From contig NC_087251.1 of NCBI RefSeq assembly GCF_037042905.1, positions 24,120,001 through 24,184,000 of the forward strand: 64,000 nucleotides of DNA. Direction: 5' to 3'. Position 1 is the stretch's first letter; each line of letters opens with the position of its first letter. The translations under genes were made by a program, and so were the position numbers. This DNA comes from Lytechinus pictus (taxonomy: Eukaryota). The notes below the pieces were generated by a model. That model had not been told where the DNA came from, did not search any database, and saw nothing but the letters and a program-made list of their open reading frames with translations. Positions 1,505 through 54,700 of this stretch are shown piece by piece.

Positions 1505-4500
1505 TGTAACGTGAGACCCTATCAAAATAACCTTTTAAAAATAGTATGCTGCCACCACAATAGTTTAGAGAGTTATTGAGCTCTTGGCCAAGCATAATTT
1601 AACACTTGACCGTAATGAAGAAACTTTTCTTCGATGAGAACTTTAAAGAGCTAGTGAACCACCAATCAGAATAGCTATCTCATGATCCATAATATCTGAG
1701 TTCTACTACGAGCTCCGCGATTGGTCCATCTTCTTGCATCGACCGCCAACTTTTAGCCTCTCCATTCTGCCAGAACCACAGAGGTTGAAGGAGCTCCGAT
1801 GATCTGAAGAAAACCGTCTTTTCTCCCATCACAAGACTTCTGTCATACTCCAGCGTCCTGACCTTCACAGCAGAATTTAACTGGTGAGTTTACTCACTAA
1901 GTGATTTAGTAAGATTTAATTATATAACCATGATATTTCTCATCTTTCATCGATAGAGTTAGCCCTGAACCAAATCTCTATTTACTCACATACAACACGT
2001 TTTGTTCGCCTCGTGTTCTACACACACACGATCAGGCATATCCAGATCACACACGTGCAGTCGTATGGACATAGGCAATCATAGAAGCGGTCAGTCCTTG
2101 CTTCGCAATCAATCATTCTAGTCTTTTCCTCAGTTCTCAAATCTGCTCTTTATCACTGGGTTTCACTAGGTAAGCGTAGTTTTCCAAGCTCGATGACGAG
2201 TTCCGTTTTCTTGCAATATACAAGGTTGGTCTATAAATAAACTAAGAACCCTAACTTAAATAATGCTTAAACTAATTGTACGGTACTTCTTATCCCTAAT
2301 CACATCATCAATCAATCATCACTAATCAATTGATCACCATTTCTAATTCTAAGACTTAACAACAAATCCAATTTATTGGATTCATCATTCTCAACAAACA
2401 CTGATCACTAATCATGTTCCTTCTGTTCAAGTGTGCAAGTCCAATTACTGATTTCCTAAGAAATAACAAGTAAAGTTCAACTGAACTTTAATATAAGAAA
2501 ACTTGAAGTTAACAATTCTGAAACATTTCAACGATAAAATTTTGATATTTACATCACTTTGCATAAGTATGAAAATTCATTGAATATATGGAATGAGCAA
2601 TATAAAATTGTATAACTTACTCTACATAGTAAAGAACCTAAATGTAAGTCTGTGCATGTCACTCTTAAATTGATAGAATGATAAATAGAATAATAATTAA
2701 TTACTAACTTAATAAATCCTATGTATTCACTGTTTTGAATACACTAAGCAATAATCTGTATCAATTGTAAATATCGAGCTGTAGCTAAACTACATCCTAC
2801 TTAGTTCTGTACTTTATACTCCGTAGAGTTGTGTTCTCTCTAAGAATTATTTCAACTTAAGACTGTAATCTACTCTCCACAAAAGTTCCAGGACCAATGG
2901 TTCTTTTCTGTCGTTCTGACTTATGTGAGTAATCCTATCTAAACTGCCAGCAGTTACTCAACACCTTTCTCCATCCAATGTCACTAACCCAATACAACAC
3001 ACCAATCTCCAATAATATCCTTATCCTATCAACCTCTCAACGGGCCTTGTTTACCAGCCTTACAGCGCCTACAAAACTTCCACTCACTTTGTCGGTGTGA
3101 AGTTTGTAACAACATCCAACATTCTGTGTGATGAAAAGCCTCAGAAATCCGTAAATATCTCTAATCATCACGGGTTCAAGAATAGACTCACATAGTACCT
3201 TTCTTAGCATTAAAGCCTACCAGAAACTTTAACCTCGTCCCTGCTGTCTGAGAATACAGCTAAATGAAAACAAGTCTGAAAGACCAACACCTAAGCAATT
3301 ATTCCTATTTCACTGTAACTAAATTTACCATCTATTAATACAGTGTCAATATTCTAAATGAAGAATTAAGCTTCATCTATAAACTGAGTTTACTTCAGTC
3401 TATGACTATAAACATCAAGTATTCTTAATAAAACATGTGAATGACTGCACAGAGAGTTTAAATTATTTACAAGTTGTTTACAAATGCTTTCTGATTGATA
3501 ATCAGCTATTTACATTTCATTGATTATTTACATAGATTACCTTGTAATCAATATTCTAGTTACATTGTATTTGTCAGATTATCAGAATTAATATTCAGTA
3601 TTCTGATCTGAATAACATTAAGTATTCTGATATGTATAACATTAAGTATTCTGATCTGTATAACATGAAGTATTCTGATCTTATAACATGAAGTATTCTG
3701 ATCTTAACAACTACGGGAATAGCATGCTTGACACCTAAGTAACACGTGATCTTAACATCCGAACACTCATGATGACTAGCTTTGTTTAGTGTGATCCTAT
3801 TTGTATATGATGTAAGAAATGTAAATAAATAATCAAAGTCATTAATCCTGAAATTAGAATTGAGTTAACAACTCTATCAATAAATATCCTTTAAACGACC
3901 AATGTGGAAAAATCCCAAAGTCAGATCAATATTCAAAGCGATACCAAAACAACACACATTCCAGAACAACTTGACAGTTTTATGTCAAATGTTACTGACC
4001 AAAAGATAATCTCTGTTTAAAGATTGAAAATCTGACACTAGCCTTTTCCACGTTGGTAGAATAATTCTATCAATGCAGTAATTTAATTTCTCTGACTAGA
4101 TAATTTGATTAAATATTCAGACTGTCAAGAGTCCTAAAAAGGACTGCCTAAATATTGTCATCAAGTCAGAAATAAATTCATAATAATATAAAATGCATAA
4201 ATTATCCAATTTCATAAATAAGGTAATTAAATATCCATTCAGGAGATTCCTTGAAAGATAAATTAACAGTCAGCATTCATGTTCACTATTGTGACTATCA
4301 ATTAATTTCTATCTGCTCCAAACAATTGTTTTCATGTCAAAAAGAGCACTAGTAAGCACCAATAAATGCATTCATATCTTCTCTAGATATCTATCAAACA
4401 ATTAGTAGACTTGACAAATCAATCAAAGTCTGCTAAAGAATAACAAAAGCTGCCCAATTTCTGTGAACAACTGATAAATCCAAGCTGACTATAAAGAAAT

Positions 4501-5493
4501 TCAACAGAGTATTGGTTGCCAAAAAAATCATCACTAATCCCAAAAAGGTGACGAATGATTTCAAATTCCTAGCTAAAATTCATCATTATTCTCACTGAAT
4601 TCCCTGAATGAATCTAAGTGTCATATTATGACGTAATGTACTCACAGAAGAATGTACAATGTAGAAAGAGAAACAGAGAACGAGAATTCTCGAGAGAGTG
4701 AATGTGAATTGTGACTAGGAGAGCTAACTTAACTCGAGAGAGCTTCCAGACGATATGACAAACTCCTCAAACCTCCCCTATTTATAGACTTTTGGCCCCC
4801 CAGGATTTTGGCAATTTCTGAGCTCATTGCATTACGCGGCGGGTTGTTATGTAATTTTAGTGCTTTAAAAACCACTCTTTCCACATAAACATTACGCAGC
4901 AGGATGCTATGCAAATTCAATACTTTAAAATACCAATGATAGCGCGTCTGTGCGCGTATGCGCGCATCAGAGCTTTAGATCCAAGGAAGAGTTCAAAATC
5001 CTGGCGGTAATTGTCTCAGAATAAAGGAAAATAACAGTATCCAAACATGAATGAAGAAATTCCAGCAATAAATTAATGCTGTCATCAACATCCAGAGAAT
5101 CTACACAAAAGGTAAGATTCTAATTTTGACTTAGAGCTATTTAAACGCTCATAAAATTTCATAACAGACCATACCGGTCCCATAAATAGATCATACTGCT
5201 GGCTCTACGTGAATATGGCGTGACTCAGCAGAAATATACCAATTCCTCTGCGCTAACACGTATGCGCGCACACTAGCAATTAATCCAAGTAAATTCACCA
5301 GTCTCTCTCCGGAATTCAGGTCACAGTTCACGTAGTAAAAACAGCTGATCGCCGGCATTCAATGACTATACTGGAGTTCAGTTACGTGATGTAAACAAAC
5401 AAAGCTCAATATTAAAAAATGGAATATGGGGAAATCTAAATCTTTATTTTGAAGATTAGATCTTTCTTTTAACGAAAAGGGGTTTTCTTCACA
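1505..5493 (-). repeat. 3' LTR (3,989 bp)
   Basis: tgtaacgtga...ttcttcaca, repeated at 11737-15725; the only difference noticed by eye is g2045 vs c12277. Confidence 0.97.
3597..3708. repeat. 24-bp tandem repeat (~4.7 copies) inside the LTR; also at 13829-13940
   Basis: Units of agtattctgatctgtataacatta. Confidence 0.85.
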
Positions 5494-5505
5494 CTACCCC
5501 CCGCC
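5494..5505 (-). other. Polypurine tract (PPT)
   Basis: Minus strand ggcggggggtag immediately precedes the TG of the 3' LTR. Confidence 0.85.
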
Positions 5506-5645
5506 AAATAAAGTCACTGTCCCAGTGACTACATTAAAATAGCATTAAATATCAATATATAGCAATACATGAATATTCATGTACATAAAAGTATTCTTAA
5601 ATATCATAAAATACATAAAGATCATACAAAATACATGACAACAAA

Positions 5646-6716
5646 TTACTTTGCAACTTTTGGTCTTTTCTCCGGATAGTGAGAGTCAATTAATCTTCTT
5701 TTTAGAGTGTATCCATTCTTGGTCTTGGTATAATACGATGTCGCAATTGTAACCTTTGATACTATTTGGATCTGTTCACTTTGGCACCCAGGAAGTTTTA
5801 TAGAAATATTCTGTTTATCACCGACAAGTTCAACAATTCTACTTTCTGGTTTATCTTCTGTGTTGCCTTCTGCAATCTGTCTGATTTCCTCCTTCAATCT
5901 CTTCTCCTCATCTTCTAATCTTTTCTTCTCTAACTCCCTTTCTTTCTCTAGTCTCTCTTCTTCCTGTCTTTTTGCTAACTCCTGCTTGGCTTCTTTTTCA
6001 CGTTTCCTTCTCTCTAGCTTCCTCTTTTCTTCCTCTAATCTTTTCTCCTCCTCCTCTATCTTACGTTTCTCCTCTTCTAGCTGCTTTCCTTCCTCATCCA
6101 GTTGCCTCTCCTCTTCTTCTTTCTCCCTACTTTCCTCTAGTTTCCTTCGTTCTTCTATGATCTCTTCGTCTAACTCGTCTACTGTACTCCTATCAACCCT
6201 TTTCCAAACTCTTTCCTGACTATCCTTCCTCCTTCCTTCCTCTATTGCTTCTTGTCGCCTCCTTTCCTCCTCTTTCCTCTTCCTCTGTTCTTCTCGTCTG
6301 TTCTTCTCTTTCTCCCTTTCTTCTTCAATCTGTCTCCTCTTCTCCCTTTCCTGCTGTTCCTCCATCCTGTCTTTAGGCTTAGGCAAAGTTGGGCTAGATC
6401 GTAGCGTGTCTACTTCTTTGGTATGAGCTCTATGATGTCGTTTGTAATGCTGTCTCATTGTCTCTCTTCTCTCAGTCTCGTGATTACATCTTTGACAGTG
6501 AATAAGAAAAGTCATTTGATGAACCTTCCGTAAATGATAGTTTAATTCCGGATAAGTTGAAAATACTCTTTTGCACTGGCTGCATATATAACTTCCATCC
6601 TGGTACTGTAAGATACAAATTACAAAGTATACAAGGCATATAATTGTATGTTGTCATACATACAATAAAAATGATAAAGGAATATTGTTGAATAAATTTC
6701 TGAATACAGTCATCAT
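5646..6716 (-). CDS. Retrotransposon accessory ORF3: two C2H2 zinc fingers + E/K/R coiled coil + basic C-terminus (~322 aa, predicted spliced)
   Basis: The frame of ORF 5646-6515 extends 30 codons upstream to the acceptor tcttacag| at 6605, adding YICSQCKRVFSTYPELNYHLRKVH before IHCQRCNHETERRETMRQHYKRHH. An in-frame caccATGATGACT|gt lies at 6716-6708 (candidate intron 6707-6606). Confidence 0.8.
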
Positions 6717-6741
6717 GGTGAAGATGTATTGCTTCTGTGAC

Positions 6742-8228
6742 TCAAAGTTCAATGTATCTTTGTGGTGGAACCCTGTTTCTATTTGGATTATGCCTGATTT
6801 CTTGTGTCAACCAGTTTTTCAAAGGCTTTCCAGTATAAGCCTTTAGTCGATCGATGTGCACCACCTTTGGTTTGCCTCTCGATGATTCCTGGATTCGATA
6901 TACGACATCAGAAAGTTTGGTTACTACCATAAATGGTCCTTTCCATTTCATGCACAGCTTAGGGCACACTCCTTTCTTCCTTGATGCGTCGAATAACCAC
7001 ACCCATTCTCCAGTCGTAAAACTTCGCTGAATGATATTTCTATCATAAGACTTAGCCTGTCTTTCAGCTGCAATTCCAAGTTTTTCTCTAGCACCTTCAT
7101 GTACCTCGTGTAACTTTTCCCTCACATCACTCACATAGTCTGATTCTTCTTCATTTGCAGGTGTTGGAGAAGGTAACAGCAAATCTACCGGCAGACTGAT
7201 TTCTCTTCCAAGCATCATCATAGCAGGACTCTCTCCAGTTGATTCCTGGACTGCTGATCTGTATGCCAACATCGCGAACGGAATCCTCTCATCCCAGTCC
7301 TTCTGTTCGTCATCTGGATTGAGCAATGACGACACCATACCCAGTAAGGTTCTATTAAATCTTTCTATAAATCCATCTCCTTGTGGGTGTAGTGGGCAAG
7401 TCCTTGTTTTCTTAATACCAAGCATCTTACACATCTCTGCCATCAGCCTTGACTCAAAATTCCTCCCTTGGTCACTATGTAGTTCTTTTGGTATTCCATA
7501 CCGACAAATAAACTCCTCCACTAGTACCCTAGCAACCGTCTCCGCCTCCTGATCTGGTAATGGGTACGATTCTATCCATTTCGTGAAATAGTCTCCCACG
7601 ACTAACACATACTTGTTTCCACTGTCCGTCTCGGGTAAAGGGCCCAAAATGTCCATCGCTACCCTTTCTAGTGGTGCACCAACTCTATATTTCTGAAGTG
7701 GAGCTTTATTCTTCTTTGGGGGGTTTTTCAGCTGTGCACAGATAGTACATCTCTTAATCCACAATCGCACATCTGCAGCAAGTCCAACCCAGTAATATCT
7801 CCTGTGTACTTTATGCAATGTCTTATTGACTCCAAGATGAGCAGCTGTTTGAGAACCATGTAATTCCTCCAGTACTGTACTTCGCAAAGAACGAGGGAGT
7901 ACAATTTTCCAAGTTATCTCCTTTCCATCTTCTGATTCCCATCTCCTCATCAAGACACCTTTTTGTACCTCTAGCAAAGTCCAGTTTACCCAGTAAACCT
8001 TAGTAGCTGATGATAGGTGTGAAACATCTTTCCAGCTCGGTCGCTCACTGCATATTTCCTTCCATCTCAAAATATGTTTTATGTCTCCATCTTGTAACTG
8101 TGCCTTCCTGATTTCCTCTTCAGTTATTGGCGTAAATGTTATGGTAGACATCTCCTTTTCATCACACTCTCCAGCCTCCATGTCAAAATCTCGTGTTAAG
8201 TAAGCACGATAGAATCCAATATAGTTCA
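6742..8228 (-). CDS. Integrase (HHCC, DDE core, GPY/F), in a different frame from RT-RH
   Basis: HGSQTAAH...CTIC, MDILGP, HSDQG, IERFNR, WKGPF; no chromodomain evident. The 5' end is uncertain (candidate acceptor at 8228, or ATG at 8181). Confidence 0.93.
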
Positions 8229-8323
8229 CTATCGAAAAACAATAATATAAATTCAATTAATGTCACAGATTCACAATCAAATAGAAATAAAGTCTTTTTT
8301 TTTTCTCTTTCACTTCCAGTCTT

Positions 8324-10300
8324 CTAAAATCTCCTACAATGTCGGCAATCGGTGCAAGGCCGTCTGGATAACCCATCAGCATTCAAGTGGACACGTCCAG
8401 CACGATGCTCTAAGGTGAGTTGATACTGTGTTATCACTTCAAGCCATCTGGCTAACTGTCCTTCAGGATTCTTAAACTGTAATAGCCACCTAAGTGCACC
8501 ATGATCTGTTCTAACTTTCACTTGTTGTCCATACAGATAATGACGGAAATACTTGAGAAAGTTTACAACAGCTAATAGCTCCCTCCTTGTTACGCAGTAA
8601 TTCTGTTCTGCAGGATTTAGAGTCTTACTGGCATATGCAATAACCCTTTCCTTTCCCTCTTGCTCTTGTGAAAGTACTGCTCCTATTGCAAAATTGCTGG
8701 CGTCTGTATCAAGAATGAATCCAACATTCAGTCTTGGGTAGGCTAGAATTGGGGCGGTCGTTAACAGTCTCTTCATCATCTGAAAAGCCTCCTCGCATTC
8801 TGTTGTCCAGATAAAGGGCTCATCTTTCTTGGTTAGATTGGTAAGTGGTTTCACAACATCAGAGAATTTGAGTATGAATCTCCTGTAGTAGGATGCTAAT
8901 CCAAGGAAACTTCGCACCTCTGTCTGGTTGGTTGGTGTGGGCCATGATTTAACAGCCTCTATCTTATCCGGGTCAGTCTTCACTCCATCGGACGATACCA
9001 CATGTCCCAGATATAAGACCTCCTTCTGAAATAGATGACACTTCTTGGGTTTCAATTTCAGATTTGCTTCTCTTAGTCGCTGTAGAGTTATTCTCATTCT
9101 ATTGATCATCTCAGATACATTAGAGCCATAGACTATTATGTCATCTAGGTAGATTAAGAGTATCTTCCATTGCAGACCTCTGAACACATTTTCCATCAAC
9201 CTCTCAAAAGTAGATGGCGCATTGCAAAGTCCGAATGGCATGACCTCGAACTGGTATAATCCTCCTGGTACCACAAATGCTGATTTTTCTTTAGCGTCAT
9301 CATCTAGTGGAACTTGCCAGTAGCCTGAAGCTAAGTCTAGCGTGCAAAAGTAACTTGCACCTTCAAGAGAATCCAGTGATTCAGCAATGTTAGGTAATGG
9401 AAATGAATCTTTCACAGTATTCTGATTCAGGAGTCTGTAGTCTACGCAGAATCGTTTGGTTCCATCCTTCTTATCCACCAATACTATCGGGGAAGACCAG
9501 GCACTGGATGAAGGTGTGATGATTCCACGTGTAAGCATGTCTTCAATTTGCTGCTCTACTTCTTCCCTCTGTCCCATAGGGTGGCGTCTAGGTCTCTGCC
9601 TAATAGGGGCATTGCTTGTAGTATGGATACTGTGCTTCACCTTGTCAGTACATCCAATATCATGGTCGCCTTTTGAGAATACATCACCGAAATCTGTCAA
9701 TAGGGTAGCAACATCAGAATGGTGAGCATCTTCAATGTTCGGTTTAGCTCTCTCAAAGACATCTGTCAAATGTTCTGGTACCTCCTGTTTGATGACCATT
9801 GCCAATCTGCTACTTCTGTGATTTGTGCACGAAATAGTCTCTCCATGTAAGGTTACCATCATTCGCTCACAATCAATAGTTGCATTTGTTTCTTGTAAGA
9901 AGTCCATTCCAATAATTCCATCCACATCGATTCCAGCTATAATGACAGACACATCATACATCCTTCCAGAAATGCTCATTGGAATAACTGTCTCCCCAAA
10001 TACTTCAATTGGGGTTCCATTGGCTTGTCTCAGTTGAATTTCTGTCTCCTTCACACCTGGCATTCTATCATGGTATGCTTGACCCAAAATAGCTCCAGAC
10101 ACAATAGTTATTGTTGACCCAGTGTCTACCAACATGTATTTTGTTTCACTCCTTATATCTACTGGTATATACATAGCTTGGTTAACATCTCGAATAATGC
10201 AAATCAAGGGATTCGCTGCTTCTAGTTGAAAATCTAGTTCTGTGGACCTGTCTGGTCTGGCCGTCCCGTGGTCCTGCGAGTAGGCCTTCTGTCGTTTCCC
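8324..10300 (-). CDS. pol: pol: aspartic protease - reverse transcriptase - RNase H
   Basis: LVDTGS (PR); RFCVDYR, LDLASGYWQ, MPFGL, YLDD (RT); DTDAS, TRRELLA, RTDH, NADGLSR (RH). It overlaps the gag end in the -1 frame. Confidence 0.96.
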   Translation of the reverse strand, partial: GKRQKAYSQDHGTARPDRSTELDFQLEAANPLICIIRDVNQAMYIPVDIRSETKYMLVDTGSTITIVSGAILGQAYHDRMPGVKETEIQLRQANGTPIEVFGETVIPMSISGRMYDVSVIIAGIDVDGIIGMDFLQETNATIDCERMMVTLHGETISCTNHRSSRLAMVIKQEVPEHLTDVFERAKPNIEDAHHSDVATLLTDFGDVFSKGDHDIGCTDKVKHSIHTTSNAPIRQRPRRHPMGQREEVEQQIEDMLTRGIITPSSSAWSSPIVLVDKKDGTKRFCVDYRLLNQNTVKDSFPLPNIAESLDSLEGASYFCTLDLASGYWQVPLDDDAKEKSAFVVPGGLYQFEVMPFGLCNAPSTFERLMENVFRGLQWKILLIYLDDIIVYGSNVSEMINRMRITLQRLREANLKLKPKKCHLFQKEVLYLGHVVSSDGVKTDPDKIEAVKSWPTPTNQTEVRSFLGLASYYRRFILKFSDVVKPLTNLTKKDEPFIWTTECEEAFQMMKRLLTTAPILAYPRLNVGFILDTDASNFAIGAVLSQEQEGKERVIAYASKTLNPAEQNYCVTRRELLAVVNFLKYFRHYLYGQQVKVRTDHGALRWLLQFKNPEGQLARWLEVITQYQLTLEHRAGRVHLNADGLSRRPCTDCRHCRRF

Positions 10301-11268
10301 TGGTACGGTTTGCTGCAAACACGACTGATGTGTCCAGGCTCTCCACAGTTGAAGCACACAACTCGTGGTGGACCTCCATTCCTGTTCACACTCATCTGCT
10401 TCATCATTGATTTGATTTCTTGTAGGCTTGACTTTAATTCTTGTATCTCCTTCTTTACTCTCTCATCTGCAGGTGACGACTGCACAGCATCCCCTACTGC
10501 TCTGACGTGACGTGGCCTAATCCTCTCTCGTGACTTCTCCGTCTGTAGAAAAGACTCTGTCGTCAACGCAGCTGTAATCGCCTCTTCAAGCGTTCTAGGA
10601 TGAGCCCGGAAAATGGCAGCCCTGATTTCACCATCTTCAATTGCTTCTGAAAAGTGTCCACGAGCAAGCCTCTCTCTAGCATCGTTGCTCAGCTCCGGGT
10701 AGGCTAGGCAAGTCAAATCTCTAATTGCCTGACCTAATTCCTGTAGACTCTCCTTCGGCTGTCGACGCCTAGTCCTCAACTCCAGCAAGAAATTTTCAGC
10801 ATTCTCTCTTGGTCCAAATCGTCGCTCCAAATGGGAAGTGAGATTGGAGTACGTAAGTTCTTGTCCAACTGGAATATTATTCAAGACCTTCAGTGCAGCG
10901 CCTTGCAGTCTCGTGGCAAGATATTGTCCAGCCTCGACATCATCCCAATTATTCAATCTTCTGCAGACGTCAAAGTGTCGGCAATAGTCCGTCCATGGTA
11001 CCTTCCCAGCAAACTTATCCGGCAAAACGTCCCTAGCTCCAGATCCTCTCAGTTTCTTCGGGTCGGTCGTTTGGTGACTCCCAACATAGGAAGCATTATT
11101 TCGGAATTGAGTTGGCGTATAAACCTGGCGCCTCTCCGCAGGAATAGCATCTCCATAATTTGCCATGTCTACCGCTATCTCCGGATCCTGCTCATCTAAT
11201 ACCCAGCTCCTCTGGACTCCATTATTTCCAGGATCTCCTGCTGCCAACTCAGCACTTGGTTCCATCAT
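10234..11268 (-). CDS. gag: gag with CCHC zinc knuckle
   Basis: CFNCGEPGHISRVC knuckle; capsid-like PDKFAG...RRQPKESLQELG; first ATG at 11268 (MMEPS). Confidence 0.92.
   Translation of the reverse strand: MMEPSAELAAGDPGNNGVQRSWVLDEQDPEIAVDMANYGDAIPAERRQVYTPTQFRNNASYVGSHQTTDPKKLRGSGARDVLPDKFAGKVPWTDYCRHFDVCRRLNNWDDVEAGQYLATRLQGAALKVLNNIPVGQELTYSNLTSHLERRFGPRENAENFLLELRTRRRQPKESLQELGQAIRDLTCLAYPELSNDARERLARGHFSEAIEDGEIRAAIFRAHPRTLEEAITAALTTESFLQTEKSRERIRPRHVRAVGDAVQSSPADERVKKEIQELKSSLQEIKSMMKQMSVNRNGGPPRVVCFNCGEPGHISRVCSKPYQGNDRRPTRRTTGRPDQTGPQN
10240..10300 (-). promoter_or_regulatory. -1 ribosomal frameshift signal (G GGA AAC + predicted pseudoknot)
   Basis: Slippery heptamer 10300-10294 is in the correct gag phase; 7-nt spacer; stem ggcc-ta-ctcg / cggg-ac-ggcc with loop ggacc complementary to downstream ggtcc. 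Confidence 0.8.
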
Positions 11269-11712
11269 ACCGAGTGCTATAATGTTTAATATATTTGGAT
11301 GTATGTTTATTTTCTTGTGTTTAAGTATAAACATACATGTTTTAGATTGTGTCAAGCAAACGTACCCTTACATTGTAAAAGGAATAGATACATTGTAAAA
11401 GGAGTAGATTTCCTTATTATTCACAGTGATTAATTCACTGTCATGTCCATAGACATATAAATGCTCATTTTCCATATTCAATCTTAACTTATTTAATGCA
11501 CACTTGTAATAAGGAACTCAAAACACAACTTATTTATTATACATAGCTTAAACAATACATTCTTAAATATCTACTAGTACCGTACACAACTATACATAAT
11601 AATAGCAAAATTTTTATATACTTAATACAGATCATTCTACTACTTAGCAGACAAAAATGTACCGGTATTTTTTTTTTTTCTTTTAAAAGTGGAGGGGTTC
11701 TTTGAAAAGACC

Positions 11713-11732
11713 ATCCCACCGCCGTGCCACCA
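11713..11732 (-). other. Primer-binding site, tRNA-Leu-like
   Basis: Minus strand tggtggcacggcggtgggat, 4 nt inside the 5' LTR; complementary to the tRNA-Leu 3' end as I recall it (atcccaccgctgccacca) apart from 2 extra nt. Confidence 0.75.
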
Positions 11733-11736
11733 AAAA

Positions 11737-14700
11737 TGTAACGTGAGACCCTATCAAAATAACCTTTTAAAAATAGTATGCTGCCACCACAATAGTTTAG
11801 AGAGTTATTGAGCTCTTGGCCAAGCATAATTTAACACTTGACCGTAATGAAGAAACTTTTCTTCGATGAGAACTTTAAAGAGCTAGTGAACCACCAATCA
11901 GAATAGCTATCTCATGATCCATAATATCTGAGTTCTACTACGAGCTCCGCGATTGGTCCATCTTCTTGCATCGACCGCCAACTTTTAGCCTCTCCATTCT
12001 GCCAGAACCACAGAGGTTGAAGGAGCTCCGATGATCTGAAGAAAACCGTCTTTTCTCCCATCACAAGACTTCTGTCATACTCCAGCGTCCTGACCTTCAC
12101 AGCAGAATTTAACTGGTGAGTTTACTCACTAAGTGATTTAGTAAGATTTAATTATATAACCATGATATTTCTCATCTTTCATCGATAGAGTTAGCCCTGA
12201 ACCAAATCTCTATTTACTCACATACAACACGTTTTGTTCGCCTCGTGTTCTACACACACACGATCAGGCATATCCACATCACACACGTGCAGTCGTATGG
12301 ACATAGGCAATCATAGAAGCGGTCAGTCCTTGCTTCGCAATCAATCATTCTAGTCTTTTCCTCAGTTCTCAAATCTGCTCTTTATCACTGGGTTTCACTA
12401 GGTAAGCGTAGTTTTCCAAGCTCGATGACGAGTTCCGTTTTCTTGCAATATACAAGGTTGGTCTATAAATAAACTAAGAACCCTAACTTAAATAATGCTT
12501 AAACTAATTGTACGGTACTTCTTATCCCTAATCACATCATCAATCAATCATCACTAATCAATTGATCACCATTTCTAATTCTAAGACTTAACAACAAATC
12601 CAATTTATTGGATTCATCATTCTCAACAAACACTGATCACTAATCATGTTCCTTCTGTTCAAGTGTGCAAGTCCAATTACTGATTTCCTAAGAAATAACA
12701 AGTAAAGTTCAACTGAACTTTAATATAAGAAAACTTGAAGTTAACAATTCTGAAACATTTCAACGATAAAATTTTGATATTTACATCACTTTGCATAAGT
12801 ATGAAAATTCATTGAATATATGGAATGAGCAATATAAAATTGTATAACTTACTCTACATAGTAAAGAACCTAAATGTAAGTCTGTGCATGTCACTCTTAA
12901 ATTGATAGAATGATAAATAGAATAATAATTAATTACTAACTTAATAAATCCTATGTATTCACTGTTTTGAATACACTAAGCAATAATCTGTATCAATTGT
13001 AAATATCGAGCTGTAGCTAAACTACATCCTACTTAGTTCTGTACTTTATACTCCGTAGAGTTGTGTTCTCTCTAAGAATTATTTCAACTTAAGACTGTAA
13101 TCTACTCTCCACAAAAGTTCCAGGACCAATGGTTCTTTTCTGTCGTTCTGACTTATGTGAGTAATCCTATCTAAACTGCCAGCAGTTACTCAACACCTTT
13201 CTCCATCCAATGTCACTAACCCAATACAACACACCAATCTCCAATAATATCCTTATCCTATCAACCTCTCAACGGGCCTTGTTTACCAGCCTTACAGCGC
13301 CTACAAAACTTCCACTCACTTTGTCGGTGTGAAGTTTGTAACAACATCCAACATTCTGTGTGATGAAAAGCCTCAGAAATCCGTAAATATCTCTAATCAT
13401 CACGGGTTCAAGAATAGACTCACATAGTACCTTTCTTAGCATTAAAGCCTACCAGAAACTTTAACCTCGTCCCTGCTGTCTGAGAATACAGCTAAATGAA
13501 AACAAGTCTGAAAGACCAACACCTAAGCAATTATTCCTATTTCACTGTAACTAAATTTACCATCTATTAATACAGTGTCAATATTCTAAATGAAGAATTA
13601 AGCTTCATCTATAAACTGAGTTTACTTCAGTCTATGACTATAAACATCAAGTATTCTTAATAAAACATGTGAATGACTGCACAGAGAGTTTAAATTATTT
13701 ACAAGTTGTTTACAAATGCTTTCTGATTGATAATCAGCTATTTACATTTCATTGATTATTTACATAGATTACCTTGTAATCAATATTCTAGTTACATTGT
13801 ATTTGTCAGATTATCAGAATTAATATTCAGTATTCTGATCTGAATAACATTAAGTATTCTGATATGTATAACATTAAGTATTCTGATCTGTATAACATGA
13901 AGTATTCTGATCTTATAACATGAAGTATTCTGATCTTAACAACTACGGGAATAGCATGCTTGACACCTAAGTAACACGTGATCTTAACATCCGAACACTC
14001 ATGATGACTAGCTTTGTTTAGTGTGATCCTATTTGTATATGATGTAAGAAATGTAAATAAATAATCAAAGTCATTAATCCTGAAATTAGAATTGAGTTAA
14101 CAACTCTATCAATAAATATCCTTTAAACGACCAATGTGGAAAAATCCCAAAGTCAGATCAATATTCAAAGCGATACCAAAACAACACACATTCCAGAACA
14201 ACTTGACAGTTTTATGTCAAATGTTACTGACCAAAAGATAATCTCTGTTTAAAGATTGAAAATCTGACACTAGCCTTTTCCACGTTGGTAGAATAATTCT
14301 ATCAATGCAGTAATTTAATTTCTCTGACTAGATAATTTGATTAAATATTCAGACTGTCAAGAGTCCTAAAAAGGACTGCCTAAATATTGTCATCAAGTCA
14401 GAAATAAATTCATAATAATATAAAATGCATAAATTATCCAATTTCATAAATAAGGTAATTAAATATCCATTCAGGAGATTCCTTGAAAGATAAATTAACA
14501 GTCAGCATTCATGTTCACTATTGTGACTATCAATTAATTTCTATCTGCTCCAAACAATTGTTTTCATGTCAAAAAGAGCACTAGTAAGCACCAATAAATG
14601 CATTCATATCTTCTCTAGATATCTATCAAACAATTAGTAGACTTGACAAATCAATCAAAGTCTGCTAAAGAATAACAAAAGCTGCCCAATTTCTGTGAAC

Positions 14701-15725
14701 AACTGATAAATCCAAGCTGACTATAAAGAAATTCAACAGAGTATTGGTTGCCAAAAAAATCATCACTAATCCCAAAAAGGTGACGAATGATTTCAAATTC
14801 CTAGCTAAAATTCATCATTATTCTCACTGAATTCCCTGAATGAATCTAAGTGTCATATTATGACGTAATGTACTCACAGAAGAATGTACAATGTAGAAAG
14901 AGAAACAGAGAACGAGAATTCTCGAGAGAGTGAATGTGAATTGTGACTAGGAGAGCTAACTTAACTCGAGAGAGCTTCCAGACGATATGACAAACTCCTC
15001 AAACCTCCCCTATTTATAGACTTTTGGCCCCCCAGGATTTTGGCAATTTCTGAGCTCATTGCATTACGCGGCGGGTTGTTATGTAATTTTAGTGCTTTAA
15101 AAACCACTCTTTCCACATAAACATTACGCAGCAGGATGCTATGCAAATTCAATACTTTAAAATACCAATGATAGCGCGTCTGTGCGCGTATGCGCGCATC
15201 AGAGCTTTAGATCCAAGGAAGAGTTCAAAATCCTGGCGGTAATTGTCTCAGAATAAAGGAAAATAACAGTATCCAAACATGAATGAAGAAATTCCAGCAA
15301 TAAATTAATGCTGTCATCAACATCCAGAGAATCTACACAAAAGGTAAGATTCTAATTTTGACTTAGAGCTATTTAAACGCTCATAAAATTTCATAACAGA
15401 CCATACCGGTCCCATAAATAGATCATACTGCTGGCTCTACGTGAATATGGCGTGACTCAGCAGAAATATACCAATTCCTCTGCGCTAACACGTATGCGCG
15501 CACACTAGCAATTAATCCAAGTAAATTCACCAGTCTCTCTCCGGAATTCAGGTCACAGTTCACGTAGTAAAAACAGCTGATCGCCGGCATTCAATGACTA
15601 TACTGGAGTTCAGTTACGTGATGTAAACAAACAAAGCTCAATATTAAAAAATGGAATATGGGGAAATCTAAATCTTTATTTTGAAGATTAGATCTTTCTT
15701 TTAACGAAAAGGGGTTTTCTTCACA
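11737..15725 (-). repeat. 5' LTR (3,989 bp)
   Basis: Near-identical to 1505-5493; followed on the minus strand by the PBS. Confidence 0.97.
15011..15018 (-). promoter_or_regulatory. Candidate LTR TATA box (copy at 4779-4786)
   Basis: ctataaatagggg on the minus strand ~710 bp into the LTR, followed ~135 nt later by a consensus donor gtgagt (14877). Confidence 0.55.
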
Positions 15726-18489
15726 CTATGTTCAGGCGTGAAAATGGGACATTTTACATGTGTTAAGCACCTTTTGTAATCCTGAACAGGGTGCGCGTGT
15801 TAATGAATATTTTTAACTATTAATGCGCGCGCGAACGCGAGTCGAAATTTGTTATAAACTAATATGAAAAGGAGATTTTAAGTAGTTTTTAGAATGAATA
15901 TAAAAGTATACATAAAATGCAAGCACGCAGAGCTATGAGTTTTGACAATAAGACCTGAAAAGGAATTGTTCCAATGGTTGACAGAACCTTGCTGCTACAC
16001 CAAATAAATTGGCCTAGTCGTGTTAGTAAAATTTTCAACCCACTACAAGAGAGAAGTTCATATAAGTATAAACGGACAAAGTGGATAATAATCACCTTCA
16101 CATTTTTTACAGACGTTACCAAAATAGTTGAGTCAGAAATAGCCGGTTTCCGATGTATCATTACATTTTAACCATTTAAAAATATATATCCTAAAGTATC
16201 TAGCGAATTCATTTATACGTTTTCATTGTAGATGACCATTAAGAATTTGCTATTATGACGGCCATCTTTGAATTTTTATGGAAAAATAACTTTTTAACAA
16301 AATACCATGTATATTGTCAATATACATCACTCGATATTGCTCTAAAATGATACCAGTGTGCCTGTGACAAGAGATTTCTCTTGTCACAGGCACACTACCG
16401 AATTGCTTCTTGGACTTTACTTGTTGGAATATCAATGCCTTGCTCTACCGTGTATACTGAAATTACTTAATTGCAATTCTCAATCTAGGGAAAACTGAAC
16501 AATTGCAGGACTCTTTGCTCTGATTGTAAGCTCAGACACAATTATGAAGTATAGTAGTAGTATTCATTTCCGTATTAAAAGCACAATTATATACAATAAA
16601 ATACGGTGGATAGCCCACATTCAGCGTGACTGGCACAATCACGCTGGTTTTCCGTGGGGTCCAAAACATTTAACATTAACATATAAGTTAGATACAATAA
16701 AAGCAGATTAAAATAACAGATGTACAGAAGATAAATGAAAATAGTGACGATATAATGTTTCGCTATGAACTTTTGAATTTTGGGTGCATTGTACTGTTAA
16801 TATTTATAAAACGTGGATTTAATTGAATTGGTTTTCACAATGATCTAGGACTTTGTTTACAACCACTTTCTGTTCTTCAGATTTTGAGTGTTGTCAATCA
16901 TGAGCATACGGCCACAACAAGAATTATTTGTTTGTGTGCTTTTTTCAAAAACAGTAATGTTAAAACTACACCGCCGGTTTTAAAGAGGATGATCATAACA
17001 TGGAGTAGCTCCATGATCATACCAAGCATTGTACACTACAGCGTGTCCCACAAAACATGTTAATGGCACTTTAAATGAGTATAATGTGAAATTACTCAAT
17101 CCTATTGTATATAATTTATGTAATCATAAATTAGCATTTTTTCATACAACTGGCTTGAATTTCATGCAATATTATTCATTAAACAAAGAGAGATGGGCCT
17201 TCTTTCAGATTTCATGAGAAAACCTCTCAGTCCAAGTTTCGTTATTGCATTGAATAAAGTACGCACCCAATCACGTCTTCATTCACTATTAATCTATTTC
17301 CTTTTTTTAGATTTTCGGCCCACAACTTGCGGGCCGATACTTAAATTTAAAAGGAAAATGAAGGTTTAAAAAGATTGGCATGACATCTTTAATCAAACGT
17401 GATTAATCAAACATGAAATTTACTTTAAACCAATGGGATGCACGGTTAGTGACTTGCGGTTGATTTTTAGTTGTTTTTAAAGGCAACACTTTCTGCAACA
17501 GGCCCCTGGACTAGCATTATGCAATCGAGAACATTCTGTTTAAATATTCGATCCGAATAAAGAAATATCTATTAAGTCACTGGTTATTGAGCCCAGAATC
17601 TTTCATTGAGCTGATGGTGCCTATTGTGCTGATTGTGCCCTCAGAGTAACTAAATAGGATTAGAGAACAAGAGAAACAAAAATACACGGGGGTTGGGCAG
17701 GGCCCTGTGAACGATATTTTAACTGGGGGTGCTGATGTAAATTTGACAAGCAAAAAAAAAAATCACTAAAAAAATGAAGGTCACTTTGGTCCTGAGAAAG
17801 GGGGGCACTTTTGTTTAACATTTATTAATTTATATTAGAATCCCAGGGGGTGCTGCAAATGAAGAATAATACACGCAGCACCCCCAGTAAAATATTGGGG
17901 GTTCAGCACCCCGCTTCCCAGGACCATGCCCCCCCCCTTCGCTGACTAAGGTCATGTGTAGTGCCCGAAAGGATTACATGGGGCTGAAAATATCCCGTTT
18001 TCAAAATAATCTGTTTCAAAGATATTTTGTACTATATTATATTTTTTTTCTATTTTAGTTTAGCGAGATAGGCACCCTACTCAGGATTACAAAAGATGCC
18101 GAATAAATTTTCAACCTGAGCTTCACTCTGGCATTTTTTCTTTCACAAATGAGATAAACAGCTTGCTATCTGTTAAAAGACATGCTATTGTCTGGTTAGA
18201 AAATGCAAAGTTTTTTGCTTGCCCCTCGCGCTCGCATTGTTTAGGTAAATACGCATCAAATTAATTATTAAACAAATGTGATAGCTTATCCAATTTTTAG
18301 CTCTCAGTCTCTCCCAATTTTAGCTCGCGCTTCACGCTGTCATTTTTGTTTAGTGAGATATATATTCTTTTCTGCCATGAAAGACATGTTTAAAATGCTC
18401 CGTTTTTAATTCGAGATTTTCAACTCACGGTTCGGGCTCGCATCAATCGTTTAATTAGATACTGATAATGTTCATGATTTTGTGGTGAT

Positions 18490-51700: not shown

Positions 51701-54700
51701 GTACACAAACCTTGTATGTCATGGGTGTTCGTCGGACTAGTCAAGCAATCTCGGAATGTTTCCGAAAACATCTGAAAGTGACCAAAGTTTGAGGCTACAC
51801 GTTCAGAAAATTCGCAGCTTGCGCTCTCACTGGATGCGAGCTTGACGAAGCTGATCGATTGCACCGAACACCTAGCCTAGCTAGCTAGCTGTTTAGCCTG
51901 CCGCGGGGCACCGTGAGGATATTTCATGTGCATGTATGCTGCAATTATGTGAGTGTTGACAGACCGAGTGAGGTAAATTCAACCAAAGACAGCAGAATGT
52001 GGCAATAATGGATTCGTTAGAGGCCGAAAAAAGGACAAAACCCAGTGCAAGGATATATCTTCACAATGCTTACAAAGAGTGGGTCCGACAAAGGGACAGC
52101 TTTCTTAAATCCCGGCCCAGAAGCAGGCTTGGGCAATCTGATGAAGAGTTCGCCCTCCACCTTCTCCATGGCCATGGCTTTAGTGGACTACATGGCTTGC
52201 AGGCCCACAGCCCGGCAGGGGTAGCTTGCATGCAGCTGCATACGCGCCGCAGCGAAATCGAATAGCCGAGATATCCCAATTCGTTCAGTTCAATTTCACT
52301 GGTCCTAAATATGGAGATTATAATGCCTTCAGTCCAGAGAAAGCGAATTGCTCGCAAATACATGAATTACCCCTGGCTGGATGCTTTAATAGAGGATTTG
52401 GTAACCTCACCGCATTGGTCAACCTTTTGTCAATTTTGACATAGAATTGTGTGAGATCAGTTTGCAATTAAACTGAATCTCTATAGTTGATGTAGAAACT
52501 CCTAGTTCTTGAAAGGAGAGATGAGAATGAATGCTGTGATAGTCACATCCCATCCCATAAAGTTGATATAGAAACTCCTAGTTCTTTAAAGGAGAGATGA
52601 GAATGAATGCTGTGATAGTCACATCCCATCCCATAAAGTTGATATAGAAACTCCTAGTTCTTTAAAGGAGAGATGAGAATGAATGCTGTGATAGTCACAT
52701 CCCATCCCATAAAGTTGATGTAGAAACTCCTAGTTCTTGAAAGGAGAGATGAGAATGAATGCTGTGATAGTCACATCCCATCCCATAAAGTTGATATAGA
52801 AACTCCTAGTTCTTTAAAGGAGAGATGAGAATGAATGCTGTGATAGTCACATCCCATCCCATAAAGTTGATATAGAAACTCCTAGTTCTTTAAAGGAGAG
52901 ATGAGAATGAATGCTGTGATAGTCACATCCCATCCCATAAAGTTGATATAGAAACTCCTAGTTCTTTAAAGGAGAGATGAGAATTAATGCTGTGATAGTC
53001 ACATCCCATCCCATAAAGTTGATATAGAAACTCCTAGTTCTTTAAAGGAGAGATGAGAATGAATGCTGTGATAGTCACATCCCATCCCATAAAGTTGATA
53101 TAGAAACTCCTAGTTGTTGAAAGGAGAGATGAGAATGAATGCTGTGATAGTCACATCCCATCCCATAAAGTTGATGTAGAAACTCCTAGTTCTTTAAAGG
53201 AGAGATGAGAATGAATGCTGTGATAGTCACATCCCATCCCATAAAGTTGATATAGAAACTCGTAGTTCTTTAAAGGAGAGATGAGAATGAATGCTGTGAT
53301 AGTCACATCCCATCCCATAAAGTTGATATAGAAACTCCTAGTTCTTTAAAGGAGAGATGAGAATGAATGCTGTGATAGTCACATCCCATCCCATAAAGTT
53401 GATGTAGAAACTCCTAGCTCTTTAAAGGAGAGATGAGAATGAATGCTGTGATAGTCACATCCCATCCCATAAAGTTGATATAGAAACTCCTAGTTCTTTA
53501 AAGGAGAGATGAGAATGAATGCTGTGATAGTCACATCCCATCCCATAAAGTTGATATAGAAACTCCTAGTTCTTTAAAGGAGAGATGAGAATGAATGCTG
53601 TGATAGTCACATCCCATCCCATAAAGTTGATATAGAAACTCCTAGTTCTTGAAAGGAGAGATGAGAATGAATGCTGTGATAGTCACATCCCATCCCATAA
53701 AGTTGATATAGAAACTCCTAGTTCTTGAAAGGAGAGATGAGAATGAATGCTGTGATAGTCACATCCCATCCCATAAAGTTGATATAGAAACTCCTAGTTC
53801 TTTAAAGGAGAGATGAGAATGAATGCTGTGATAGTCACATCCCATCCCATAAAGTTGATATAGAAACTCCTAGTTCTTTAAAGGAGAGATGAGAATGAAT
53901 GCTGTGATAGTCACATCCCATCCCATATAGTTGATATAGAAACTCCTAGTTCTTGAAAGGAGAGATGAGAATGAATGCTGTGATAGTCACATCCCATCCC
54001 ATAAAGTTGATGTAGAAACTCCTAGTTCTTTAAAGGAGAGATGAGAATGAATGCTGTGATAGTCACATCCCATCCCATAAAGTTGATATAGAAACTCCTA
54101 GTTCTTGAAAGGAGAGATGAGAATGAATGCTGTGATAGTCACATCCCATCCCATAAAGTTGATATAGAAACTCCTAGTTCTTTAAAGGAGAGATGAGAAT
54201 GAATGCTGTGATAGTCACATCCCATCCCATAAAGTTGATATAGAAACTCCTAGTTCTTGAAAGGAGAGATGAGAATGAATGCTGTGATAGTCACATCCCA
54301 TCCCATAAAGTTGATATAGAAACTCCTAGTTCTTGAAAGGAGAGATGAGAATGAATGCTGTGATAGATGCTGTGATAGTCACATCCCATCCCATAAAGTT
54401 GATATAGAAACTCCTAGTTCTTTAAAGGAGAGATGAGAATGAATGCTGTGATAGTCACATCCCATCCCATAAAGTTGATATAGAAACTCCTAGTTCTTTA
54501 AAGGAGAGATGAGAATGAATGCTGTGATAGTCACATCCCATCCCATAAAGTTGATATAGAAACTCCTAGTTCTTTAAAGGAGAGATGAGAATGAATGCTG
54601 TGATAGTCACATCCCATCCCATAAAGTTGATATAGAAACTCCTAGTTCTTTAAAGGAGAGAAGAGAATGAATGCTGTGATAGTCACATCCCATCCCATAA

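Follow-up and report, generated by a model that had tools for sequence, protein, structure and literature searches.

We analysed a 64,000-nucleotide stretch of the Lytechinus pictus genome (contig NC_087251.1, positions 24,120,001 to 24,184,000), hereafter called the "window", which has a G+C content of 35.8% and zero N. Its minus strand carries a complete and very young Ty3/Gypsy retrotransposon of ~14.2 kb with long terminal repeats (LTRs), whose genes come in the order gag, protease-reverse transcriptase-RNase H (PR-RT-RH), integrase (IN) and a third open reading frame (ORF), here called ORF3, in the env position. ORF3 is a true gene that is encoded by the element, is under selection and has an ATG of its own (6598-6596). 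The stop-to-stop frame of ORF3 on the minus strand (6653..5646, 335 codons) directly follows the integrase ORF (8256..6742) and includes the 320-codon stretch at 6605-5646 to which an earlier note on this DNA had drawn attention. That note described a third gene that encodes C2H2 zinc fingers and does not resemble Env; the description holds, and the gene recurs after integrase under purifying selection. The intact ORF3 protein has 322 amino acids and comprises an N-terminal finger pair, a short basic stretch, a long helix rich in Glu, Lys and Arg (E/K/R), and a C-terminal beta-hairpin.

ORF3 as a selected gene of the element

How widely is ORF3 distributed? A search of the genome (812 Mb, 368 contigs) with the ORF3 protein gave 40 matches, and homologues stand directly after integrase in Gypsy families whose IN is only 59-66% identical to that of the window. 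Three copies (L026, L027 and L028) have 271-aa ORF3 frames, all three open, between LTRs that are 99.86% identical; the copy L029 (265 aa), the element at C5:55.41 Mb and the diverged copy L006 also have an ORF3 homologue after integrase. Homologues were found in this position in four Gypsy lineages of this genome other than that of the window. The family thus follows integrase in at least five Gypsy lineages here, and it also occurs in Diadema.

Beyond this genome, a profile of four sequences was compared with 1.84 billion representatives and matched 1559 proteins at E<=1e-3, 80 of them at E<=1e-10. Most of the 150 listed matches are ordinary multi-finger proteins reached through the finger pair; among the 20 that we inspected (with at most three matched stretches), most have the ORF3 layout. 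An organism is named for seven of these 20 (Lytechinus pictus four times, Diadema setosum twice, D. antillarum once), the other 13 carrying no name, and a model from L. variegatus is a further match. One L. pictus model maps to this genome with an identity of 99-100% in each of its two parts. Searches by protein words with the ORF3 sequence returned at least two matches each; their candidates were taken up by E/K-rich words, and they say little about distribution. In public annotation, models of this family bear the names "NST1-like", "trichohyalin-like" or "H3K79 methyltransferase-like". These names are owed to the low-complexity middle of the protein and are misleading, and the present analysis corrects them.

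In order to measure selection, we limited the ratio of nonsynonymous to synonymous divergence (dN/dS, omega) to the finger and C-terminal regions, neither of which is of low complexity. Whole-ORF values were discarded because the high-scoring alignment segments slipped in the repetitive helix and inflated dS. For pairs saturated at synonymous sites, where dS is undefined, only the proportions of nonsynonymous and synonymous differences (pN and pS) were used. Between diverged copies, omega is ~0.05-0.27 overall. The fingers gave a pN of 0.14, a pS of 0.67 and an omega of 0.09 (bootstrap 0.04-0.28) against the copy L019, and a pN of 0.26 and a pS of 0.80 against L011. For the last 70 codons, omega is 0.11 (0.03-0.26) against L008, 0.13 (0.05-0.31) against L012 and 0.27 (0.08-0.79) against L006. 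Copies that are 96-97% identical are uninformative, with wide intervals. The dN/dS comparison among copies that the earlier note had suggested thus points to purifying selection, nonsynonymous change lying far below synonymous change in both the fingers and the C-terminus.

These values bear on the possibility that ORF3 is a neutral, captured host fragment or a chance frame in GA-rich low-complexity DNA. Such an origin would account for the low-complexity middle, for the low-complexity names of the public models and for the antisense frames that are open at 5734-6219. It does not account for a pN well under pS in the finger and hairpin regions, nor for a three-part layout that recurs after integrase in five lineages and in Diadema. 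The selection tests contradict it, and we give it next to no credence. An ancient capture of host fingers is possible, yet it would not make the gene neutral. The antisense frames themselves, of 161 and 91 codons on the plus strand opposite the GA-rich part of ORF3, are a low-complexity by-product and not genes.

The two tandem C2H2 fingers that had been read from the sequence were confirmed: their spacing is canonical, AlphaFold2 predicts two beta-beta-alpha units, and the family profile matches solved fingers. In the model, which was made for an intact sister protein, the two units are accompanied by helices at residues 76-146 and 150-248, with pLDDT values mostly of 86-95. When ten family members are combined into a profile, both fingers (profile positions 3-58) match chains of CTCF, ZNF64, ZFAT and ZBTB7A, with a best E of 6.7e-11; PF23225 (ZNF462 finger 7) is matched by six of the ten members (best E 4e-10), and all eight zinc ligands are invariant in the ten-member alignment. 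The fingers therefore appear, by these matches, to be of the DNA-binding CTCF/ZFAT kind. Outside the fingers, no part of the family profile matches any solved chain.

The ten-member alignment reveals a common plan: the finger pair, a short basic stretch, a charged helix and/or an acidic stretch rich in Ser, Asp and Glu, and a C-terminal motif. The long helix of the window family consists of ~70% E+K+R and 11-15% L/I/V/M/F/W/Y, with many opposite-charge pairs at i/i+4. The earlier note had called it a coiled coil. This label does not stand, as no 28-residue window has more than four of its eight heptad a/d positions hydrophobic, the usual number being two or three; an ER/K single alpha-helix would fit better than a canonical coiled coil. 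In other lineages, the long helix is replaced by a shorter basic helix and an acidic Ser/Asp/Glu-rich stretch, and the acidic stretch occurs in most family members.

The C-terminal motif is predicted to form one long beta-hairpin, and the C-terminal part gave no usable match against the protein atlas. A basic tail (LKRRL..EKRPKVAK) is present in the window protein, as first reported, but it is not kept in the wider family, where other lineages end in acidic sequence. In ORF3, the Kyte-Doolittle mean over 19 residues never exceeds 0.21; the protein is without hydrophobic segments and has neither a signal peptide nor a membrane anchor, in agreement with the earlier reading, and Pfam scans of the window protein and the family members detected neither an env family nor an RNA-binding domain.

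The start codon and an apparent intron

Where does ORF3 start? Four close sister copies (L002, L003, L004 and L005) are 96-97% identical to the window copy over this region. In all four, the TA run behind ATGGAAGT is shorter by two bases, and the ATG reads MEV(I/T)CSQCKRVF into finger 1. The diverged copy L006 starts as MMEIKCKFC, likewise in frame with finger 1, and three further lineages have an ATG immediately ahead of finger 1 (MPRCRKC, MTYLYCHIC and MMIICHHC). An in-frame ATG is present in five of the seven other copies that cover the region; the remaining two (L014 and L019) have a cut or rearranged 5' end with no recognisable start and are uninformative. A Logan contig from another species (run X2) departs from the window right after ATGGAAGT, and its next 15 letters, read in the ATG frame, place a Cys at codon 5 and TG- at codon 8. 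In the window copy, the family ATG would lead to a stop after 18 codons, and the next in-frame Met lies past finger 1. The window fingers thus lack an in-frame start because of the two extra bases, four codons after the ATG.

The earlier note had offered another solution, in which a 102-nt (6707-6606) or 55-nt GT-AG intron links an upstream caccATG at 6716 to the finger exon. Its ingredients exist: the caccATG (6716-6714) shares the ORF3 frame, from which it is cut off by the stop at 6656-6654; a GT at 6707 and an AG at 6607-6606 are present; the segment is AT-rich; and in the window the removal of 102 nt places the upstream ATG in frame. However, ORF3 starts in frame without splicing in all four close sisters and in L006, the insertion in the window is private, and the three other lineages have their ATG directly ahead of finger 1. 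Moreover, the supposed intron contains a 4-base insertion in L002, L004 and L005 and a 3-base insertion in L003, so that a splice at 6707/6606 misses the finger frame in the sisters. One run X2 contig is unspliced across 6606-6707, though it may derive from DNA or genomic RNA. The window has the appearance of an intron because its private 2-base frameshift removed the normal start. We reject the "intron-containing" gene, since the splice yields the fingers in the window copy only, and regard the intron as hardly credible. The case is a caution for the reading of single copies: a private 2-base indel mimicked a convincing but false intron.

The element, its copies and the pol spacer

The coordinates of the element are collected in Table 1. 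Self-BLAST pairs 1505-5496 with 11737-15728 at 99.975% identity, the sole mismatch being 2045 G / 12277 C; the terminal three matched bases are flank, as the outer ends of six other copies vary there, and the true LTR length is 3989 bp with TG...CA ends. Exact 4-bp target-site duplications (TSDs) flank four other copies (GTAT, ATAT, CTAC and GTAC). The pol frames match PF13975/PF13650, PF00078 and PF17917/PF17919, and then PF17921, PF00665 and PF22938. The PR-RT-RNaseH-IN order, the CCHC gag, the TG...CA LTRs, the short TSD and the stretches resembling a primer-binding site (PBS) and a polypurine tract (PPT) identify the element as Ty3/Gypsy (Metaviridae). A PBS-like stretch likewise follows the LTR in the C14 family.

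Table 1. Features of the Ty3/Gypsy element in the window (minus strand; listed in the direction of the element)
Feature	Position	Strand	Remarks
TSD, upstream copy	15726..15729	-	ATAG on element strand; partner 1501-1504 is ATAT (3/4 bases)
5' LTR	11737..15725	-	3989 bp, TG...CA on element strand; self-BLAST and six-copy end comparison
PBS-like TGG... stretch	11714..11732	-	4 T past the LTR; read from sequence
gag	10234..11268	-	first ATG 11268-11266; CCHC knuckle, PF00098 E 2.7e-6
pol part 1 (protease, reverse transcriptase, RNase H)	8324..10462	-	-1 frame overlap with gag
Stop-rich, AT-rich spacer, RNase H to integrase	8229..8337	-	GT 8337-8336, AG 8230-8229; inferred intron
Integrase ORF (H2C2 finger, core, C-terminal SH3-like domain)	6742..8256	-	first ATG 8181-8179
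3' splice-acceptor-like site	6606..6626	-	pyrimidine-rich tract and CAG, 7 nt ahead of ORF3 ATG
ORF3 family start codon	6596..6598	-	A at -3, G at +4; sister-copy alignment
TA run, two bases longer than in 4/4 close sisters and L006	6584..6590	-	alignment and translations
C2H2 finger 1	6519..6590	-	residues 22-45 of P0001 (window ORF3 protein), C-x2-C-x12-H-x4-H
C2H2 finger 2	6432..6503	-	P0001 residues 51-74, C-x2-C-x12-H-x3/4-H
E/K/R-rich long helix	5871..6371	-	~170 residues; ends approximate, transferred from sister protein
C-terminal conserved beta-hairpin VTIATSYYTKTKNGYTLKRRLIDS	5679..5753	-	predicted, pLDDT 91-95 (8-sequence alignment); purifying selection
ORF3 stop codon TAA	5646..5648	-	sequence
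PPT-like GGCGGGGGG	5497..5505	-	3 nt ahead of 3' LTR; read from sequence
3' LTR	1505..5493	-	contains a 24-bp x 5.5 tandem repeat at 3581-3711

How are the two parts of pol joined? The reading frame of RNase H runs to 8324, and that of integrase is open only from 8256. Without an overlap, the two cannot be joined by ribosomal frameshifting. This break, rich in stops and in AT, recurs in the C14 and C3 families (L033/L034 and L035/L036), so that it occurs in three lineages whose LTRs are 97.8-99.97% identical (at least 99.86% in two of them), and in relatives elsewhere pol is continuous, a linker of 44 residues standing at the break point. The GT at 8337-8336 and the AG at 8230-8229 are kept in all six window-family copies aligned in the correct orientation (a seventh was left out), with a spacer length that varies by non-multiples of three, and removal of 8337-8229 joins the frames as ...CRH|LNY.... 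No spacer-less copy was found among the copies searched. Either the spacer is a pol intron, as described for the plant element Ogre (PMC12786077), or integrase is translated alone from the ATG at 8181. This observation may matter more than ORF3 itself.

Several derivatives of the element retain ORF3 or parts of it. One has lost PR-RT-RNaseH through a 2058-bp deletion (window 8412-10471) and keeps part of gag, IN and ORF3; it is present in at least four copies (C7:7.68 Mb, C3:76.25 Mb, C5:36.85 Mb and C13:23.19 Mb), and in another species its joint was seen in a Logan contig and in a single raw RNA read. L002 is such a derivative, with IN, a fully open ORF3 and 99.96% identical LTRs. The copy at C10:8.35 Mb (L006/L015) is a mosaic, with an IN 96% identical to that of the window, a finger region of 44% identity that resembles L014 and an ORF3 C-terminus of 81% identity, which suggests recombination between lineages within ORF3. 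At C2:33.92-33.96 Mb (L025 and L030), tandem units consist of an integrase C-terminal fragment and the N-terminal half of an ORF3 homologue, several of them open; in L. pictus, arrays of this type have given rise to NCBI models called [quoted passage not shown]. At C8:1.88 Mb (L010 and L022), a gag fragment (residues 60-279, ~90%) is fused directly to an ORF3 fragment (44-60%) in repeated units, a rearranged or chimeric derivative.

The LTRs and leaders also contain repeats and motifs of their own. The 24-bp unit of the 3' LTR is repeated 5.5 times in the same place in the 5' LTR, and the LTRs of the C14 family contain repeats of ~128 bp; both are candidates for enhancer-like elements. The leaders of the window element (~11375-11390) and of the C14 family, which are otherwise unalignable, have a TACAATGTA(A/C)G motif in common (two lineages). 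In the window, the TACAATGTA motif makes ATG-TAA followed by GTAAGG, which may serve as a weak donor, as an upstream ORF of minimal size or as a packaging signal. At C1:17.52-17.74 Mb, twelve matches to the LTR 3' end (84-87%) lie on a single strand at a spacing of ~13-19 kb, in what looks like a large tandem array containing an LTR fragment. Elsewhere in the window, at 52482-55755, self-BLAST offsets in multiples of 76 reveal ~43 copies of a 76-bp satellite unit with 97-99% identity.

Expression, function and known systems

How could ORF3 be expressed? A pyrimidine tract and CAG stand 7 nt ahead of the ORF3 ATG in the window family and 1 nt ahead of it in L006; in the C14 and C3 families and in the C2 array units, they adjoin the ATG directly (0 nt). 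The lineage at C5:55.41 Mb has a ~40-nt T-rich tract and CAG 1 nt from the ATG. In the same elements, a site of equal quality is found 0-8 nt upstream of 4.4%, 1.1%, 0.3% and 0.6% of positions (for ATG distances of 7, 1, 0 and 0 nt), which favours the acceptor. The flanks of these sites no longer align across lineages, and the signal stays. The acceptor AG at 6607-6606 therefore looks real, as judged from this recurrence. Of the splice junctions that the earlier note had put forward at 6606/6605, the joining of an LTR or leader donor to 6605 is plausible, with an acceptor that is conserved in kind in five lineages, and the 102- and 55-nt junctions are unsupported. The NCBI model P0089, which joins IN to ORF3, was not used as evidence of splicing, since its inferred segment ends in neither GT nor AG.

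On this basis we propose the following two steps.

Expression: ORF3 is probably translated from a singly spliced subgenomic mRNA, as is the env of retroviruses and errantiviruses. Splicing would run from a donor in the LTR or leader to the conserved acceptor, and the ORF3 ATG would become the first AUG past the junction.

Action: More tentatively, the protein may enter the nucleus, where its two fingers would bind a short DNA site, likeliest in the element's own 4-kb LTR. Because two fingers read only ~6 bp, ORF3 would probably act within a larger assembly. Its charged or acidic middle could then raise transcription of the element in the manner of the foamy-virus protein Tas, with the C-terminal hairpin as a docking strand for a partner.

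A regulator of transcription fits the DNA-type fingers, the acidic or charged middle, the env-like position and a protein in which no structural or enzymatic domain was seen. As a whole, our best explanation is that ORF3 is a selected gene of the element, expressed from a spliced subgenomic mRNA and encoding a DNA-binding regulator of that element; we hold it with a little less than even confidence.

Several points weigh against this explanation. First, the splicing signals are incomplete. Three lineages were scanned from the PBS through the leader into gag, and no donor matching MAG|GTRAGT at 8/9 positions or better occurs there in the window and C14 families. The four fractions given above for acceptor-like sites were taken on a background that is the whole internal region, with a composition unlike that of the AT-rich spacers, and from lineages that are kin, so that they are not independent. 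Second, two raw RNA runs and two Logan-contig runs were compared with 5497-15728 (10.2 kb), and no joint was seen at 6606/6605 or 8229, although the reads of the two raw runs (32 and 42) are too few to expect one. The raw reads fall mostly in the LTR and almost never on ORF3, with a depth of 0-0.39 on 5497-6864, and the only relevant joint, 8412 to 10471 (2058 nt), is that of the deletion derivative, also present as DNA copies. Coverage is too thin, and it therefore provides no evidence on expression or splicing either way.

Third, ORF3 is broken in four of the five close sister copies (L003-L006 being the broken ones) and frameshifted in the window. Many copies thus spread or persist with no ORF3 of their own; the protein may act in trans, as it would have to if it is needed, or it may be dispensable. 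As for the two extra TA bases of the window, this very young copy may truly have mutated, or the dinucleotide run may have been misassembled. Finally, the window fingers miss the Pfam cut-off, finger 1 alone being seen, with 20.2-23.3 bits against 25-27 and E-values of 6e-5 to 8e-4; two fingers confer little specificity, and C2H2 pairs may bind RNA or protein.

Alternatively, ORF3 could be an RNA-binding adaptor that exports or packages unspliced genomic RNA, as do CERV of the Caenorhabditis elegans element Cer1 or Rev/Rex. The position and the likely spliced expression of ORF3 are the same as those of CERV (PMC10309623). The likely ORF3 acceptor and the possible pol intron would make the genomic RNA intron-containing, and with the splice sites that the element seems to contain, its full-length RNA would require help in export or packaging. 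In addition, RNA might be bound by two basic parts of the protein, the stretch behind the fingers and the C-terminal hairpin. On the other hand, the finger pair best matches DNA-binding fingers, and the Pfam scans detected no RNA-binding domain; we consider the adaptor unlikely, though worth keeping in view.

Does ORF3 guide integration? As a tether, it would hold a genomic site with its fingers and integrase with its hairpin. The fingers are of DNA type, the gene always adjoins integrase, and the deletion derivative retains exactly IN and ORF3. We tabulated the flanks of seven copies, five of which were correctly sampled on either side (the window copy, C5:37.69, C13, C4 solo and C7:7.68). 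In this small sample, the flanks have nothing in common but a 4-bp NTAY duplication (GTAT, ATAT, CTAC, GTAC and ATAG/ATAT). Regional targeting, to chromatin or repeats, is possible with these data, and site-specific targeting was marked down because the five flanks contain no common target. A tether is accordingly improbable.

The divergence of ORF3 raises a further alternative, that it counteracts a host defence such as piRNA or chromatin silencing; the "anti-silencing factor" of the earlier note was of this kind. Between lineages, ORF3 is ~25% identical, as compared to 63-66% for IN, 64-65% for PR-RT-RH and 51-55% for gag, and it thus changes much faster than the rest of the element. The recombinant L006 joins its nearly unchanged IN to a strongly divergent finger region, and proteins that are in conflict with the host typically show turnover of this kind. 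However, the signal between diverged copies is purifying and not diversifying, and plain accessory proteins such as CERV also diverge fast. We judge this alternative rather improbable as well.

Taking the pol spacer and the ORF3 acceptor together, one may go further and picture an active echinoid Gypsy clade that resembles an envelope-less complex retrovirus. It would use two splicing events, one to join pol and one to produce the mRNA of a C2H2 trans-regulator of its own LTR or RNA. We offer this broader picture as a conjecture that is more likely wrong than right. In the sea urchin, mRNA injection into embryos and reporter assays are routine, which makes trans-regulators outside the retroviruses directly testable.

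How does ORF3 compare with known proteins and elements? Its fingers resemble those of CTCF, ZFAT, ZNF64 and ZNF462 in their spacing, their 7-residue linker and their predicted beta-beta-alpha fold, and differ from the CTCF type in being only two and in a linker of the form H-x-T/S-x-L/M-T-x-x-C, which is not TGEKP-like. Among retroelements, R2-type non-LTR elements have N-terminal C2H2 fingers in their reverse transcriptase protein, which direct site-specific insertion. ORF3, in contrast, is a separate protein, and the five insertion sites have no common target. The chromodomains of chromoviruses provide the comparison for an integration tether. Tas/Bel1 of foamy viruses, Tax/Rex and Tat/Rev are small non-structural proteins that are encoded 3' of pol, are expressed from spliced RNAs and act on their own LTR or RNA. 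These trans-regulators of complex retroviruses have no known relation to ORF3 in sequence or fold and are not known to use classical C2H2 fingers, so that the analogy is one of function only.

In errantiviruses, env is translated from a subgenomic mRNA spliced to an acceptor just ahead of the ORF. An Env protein is marked by its signal peptide, fusion domain and membrane anchor, whereas ORF3 has no hydrophobic segment. The errantivirus env, as in Drosophila gypsy, is like ORF3 a third ORF after integrase (PMC13524379). In that 2026 survey, env-carrying Gypsy elements are reported from most metazoan phyla and not from Echinodermata (PMC13524379). Plant LTR retrotransposons carry extra ORFs at or close to the position of env, mostly without a known function, and their introns, in Ogre and EVADE, serve to make subgenomic RNAs or to join parts of pol (PMC12786077). 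The plant ORFs encode unrelated proteins, and the stop-rich spacer between RNase H and integrase in these animal Gypsy elements would be a separate case.

In the full-text literature (a scope outside of which subscription journals and Repbase lie), we found no description of the ORF3 family. As far as we have found, the kind of gene, an additional LTR-retrotransposon ORF in the env position, is known, and this family apparently is not. Third ORFs without known function are common in LTR retrotransposons, and in the literature surveyed CERV is the one example from animals whose function has been worked out. To this, ORF3 adds a second family that is unrelated to CERV, has a domain that can be read (two zinc fingers of DNA type) and occurs across echinoids, still in very young copies.

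CERV itself is the closest comparison. CERV is required for export of the genomic RNA of Cer1, a Ty3/Gypsy element of Caenorhabditis elegans (PMC10309623); it is encoded by a spliced element mRNA, is nuclear, lineage-restricted and fast-diverging, and contains a possible zinc finger in the form of a Cys-rich region. Both CERV and ORF3 are 3' ORFs of a Gypsy element, restricted to lineages and diverging fast; CERV is expressed through splicing, as ORF3 probably is. CERV differs in its size (517 aa) and in a five-exon mRNA that has exons in common with gag (PMC10309623). It also differs in its domains, with helix-hairpin-helix, M and G domains and a possible C4 finger, where ORF3 has a C2H2 pair. 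The export function of CERV has been demonstrated, whereas any role of ORF3 is a proposal. Were the broader picture of an envelope-less complex retrovirus correct, no regulatory gene with DNA fingers would have been found before in an LTR retrotransposon, and ORF3 would be to deuterostomes what CERV is to nematodes.

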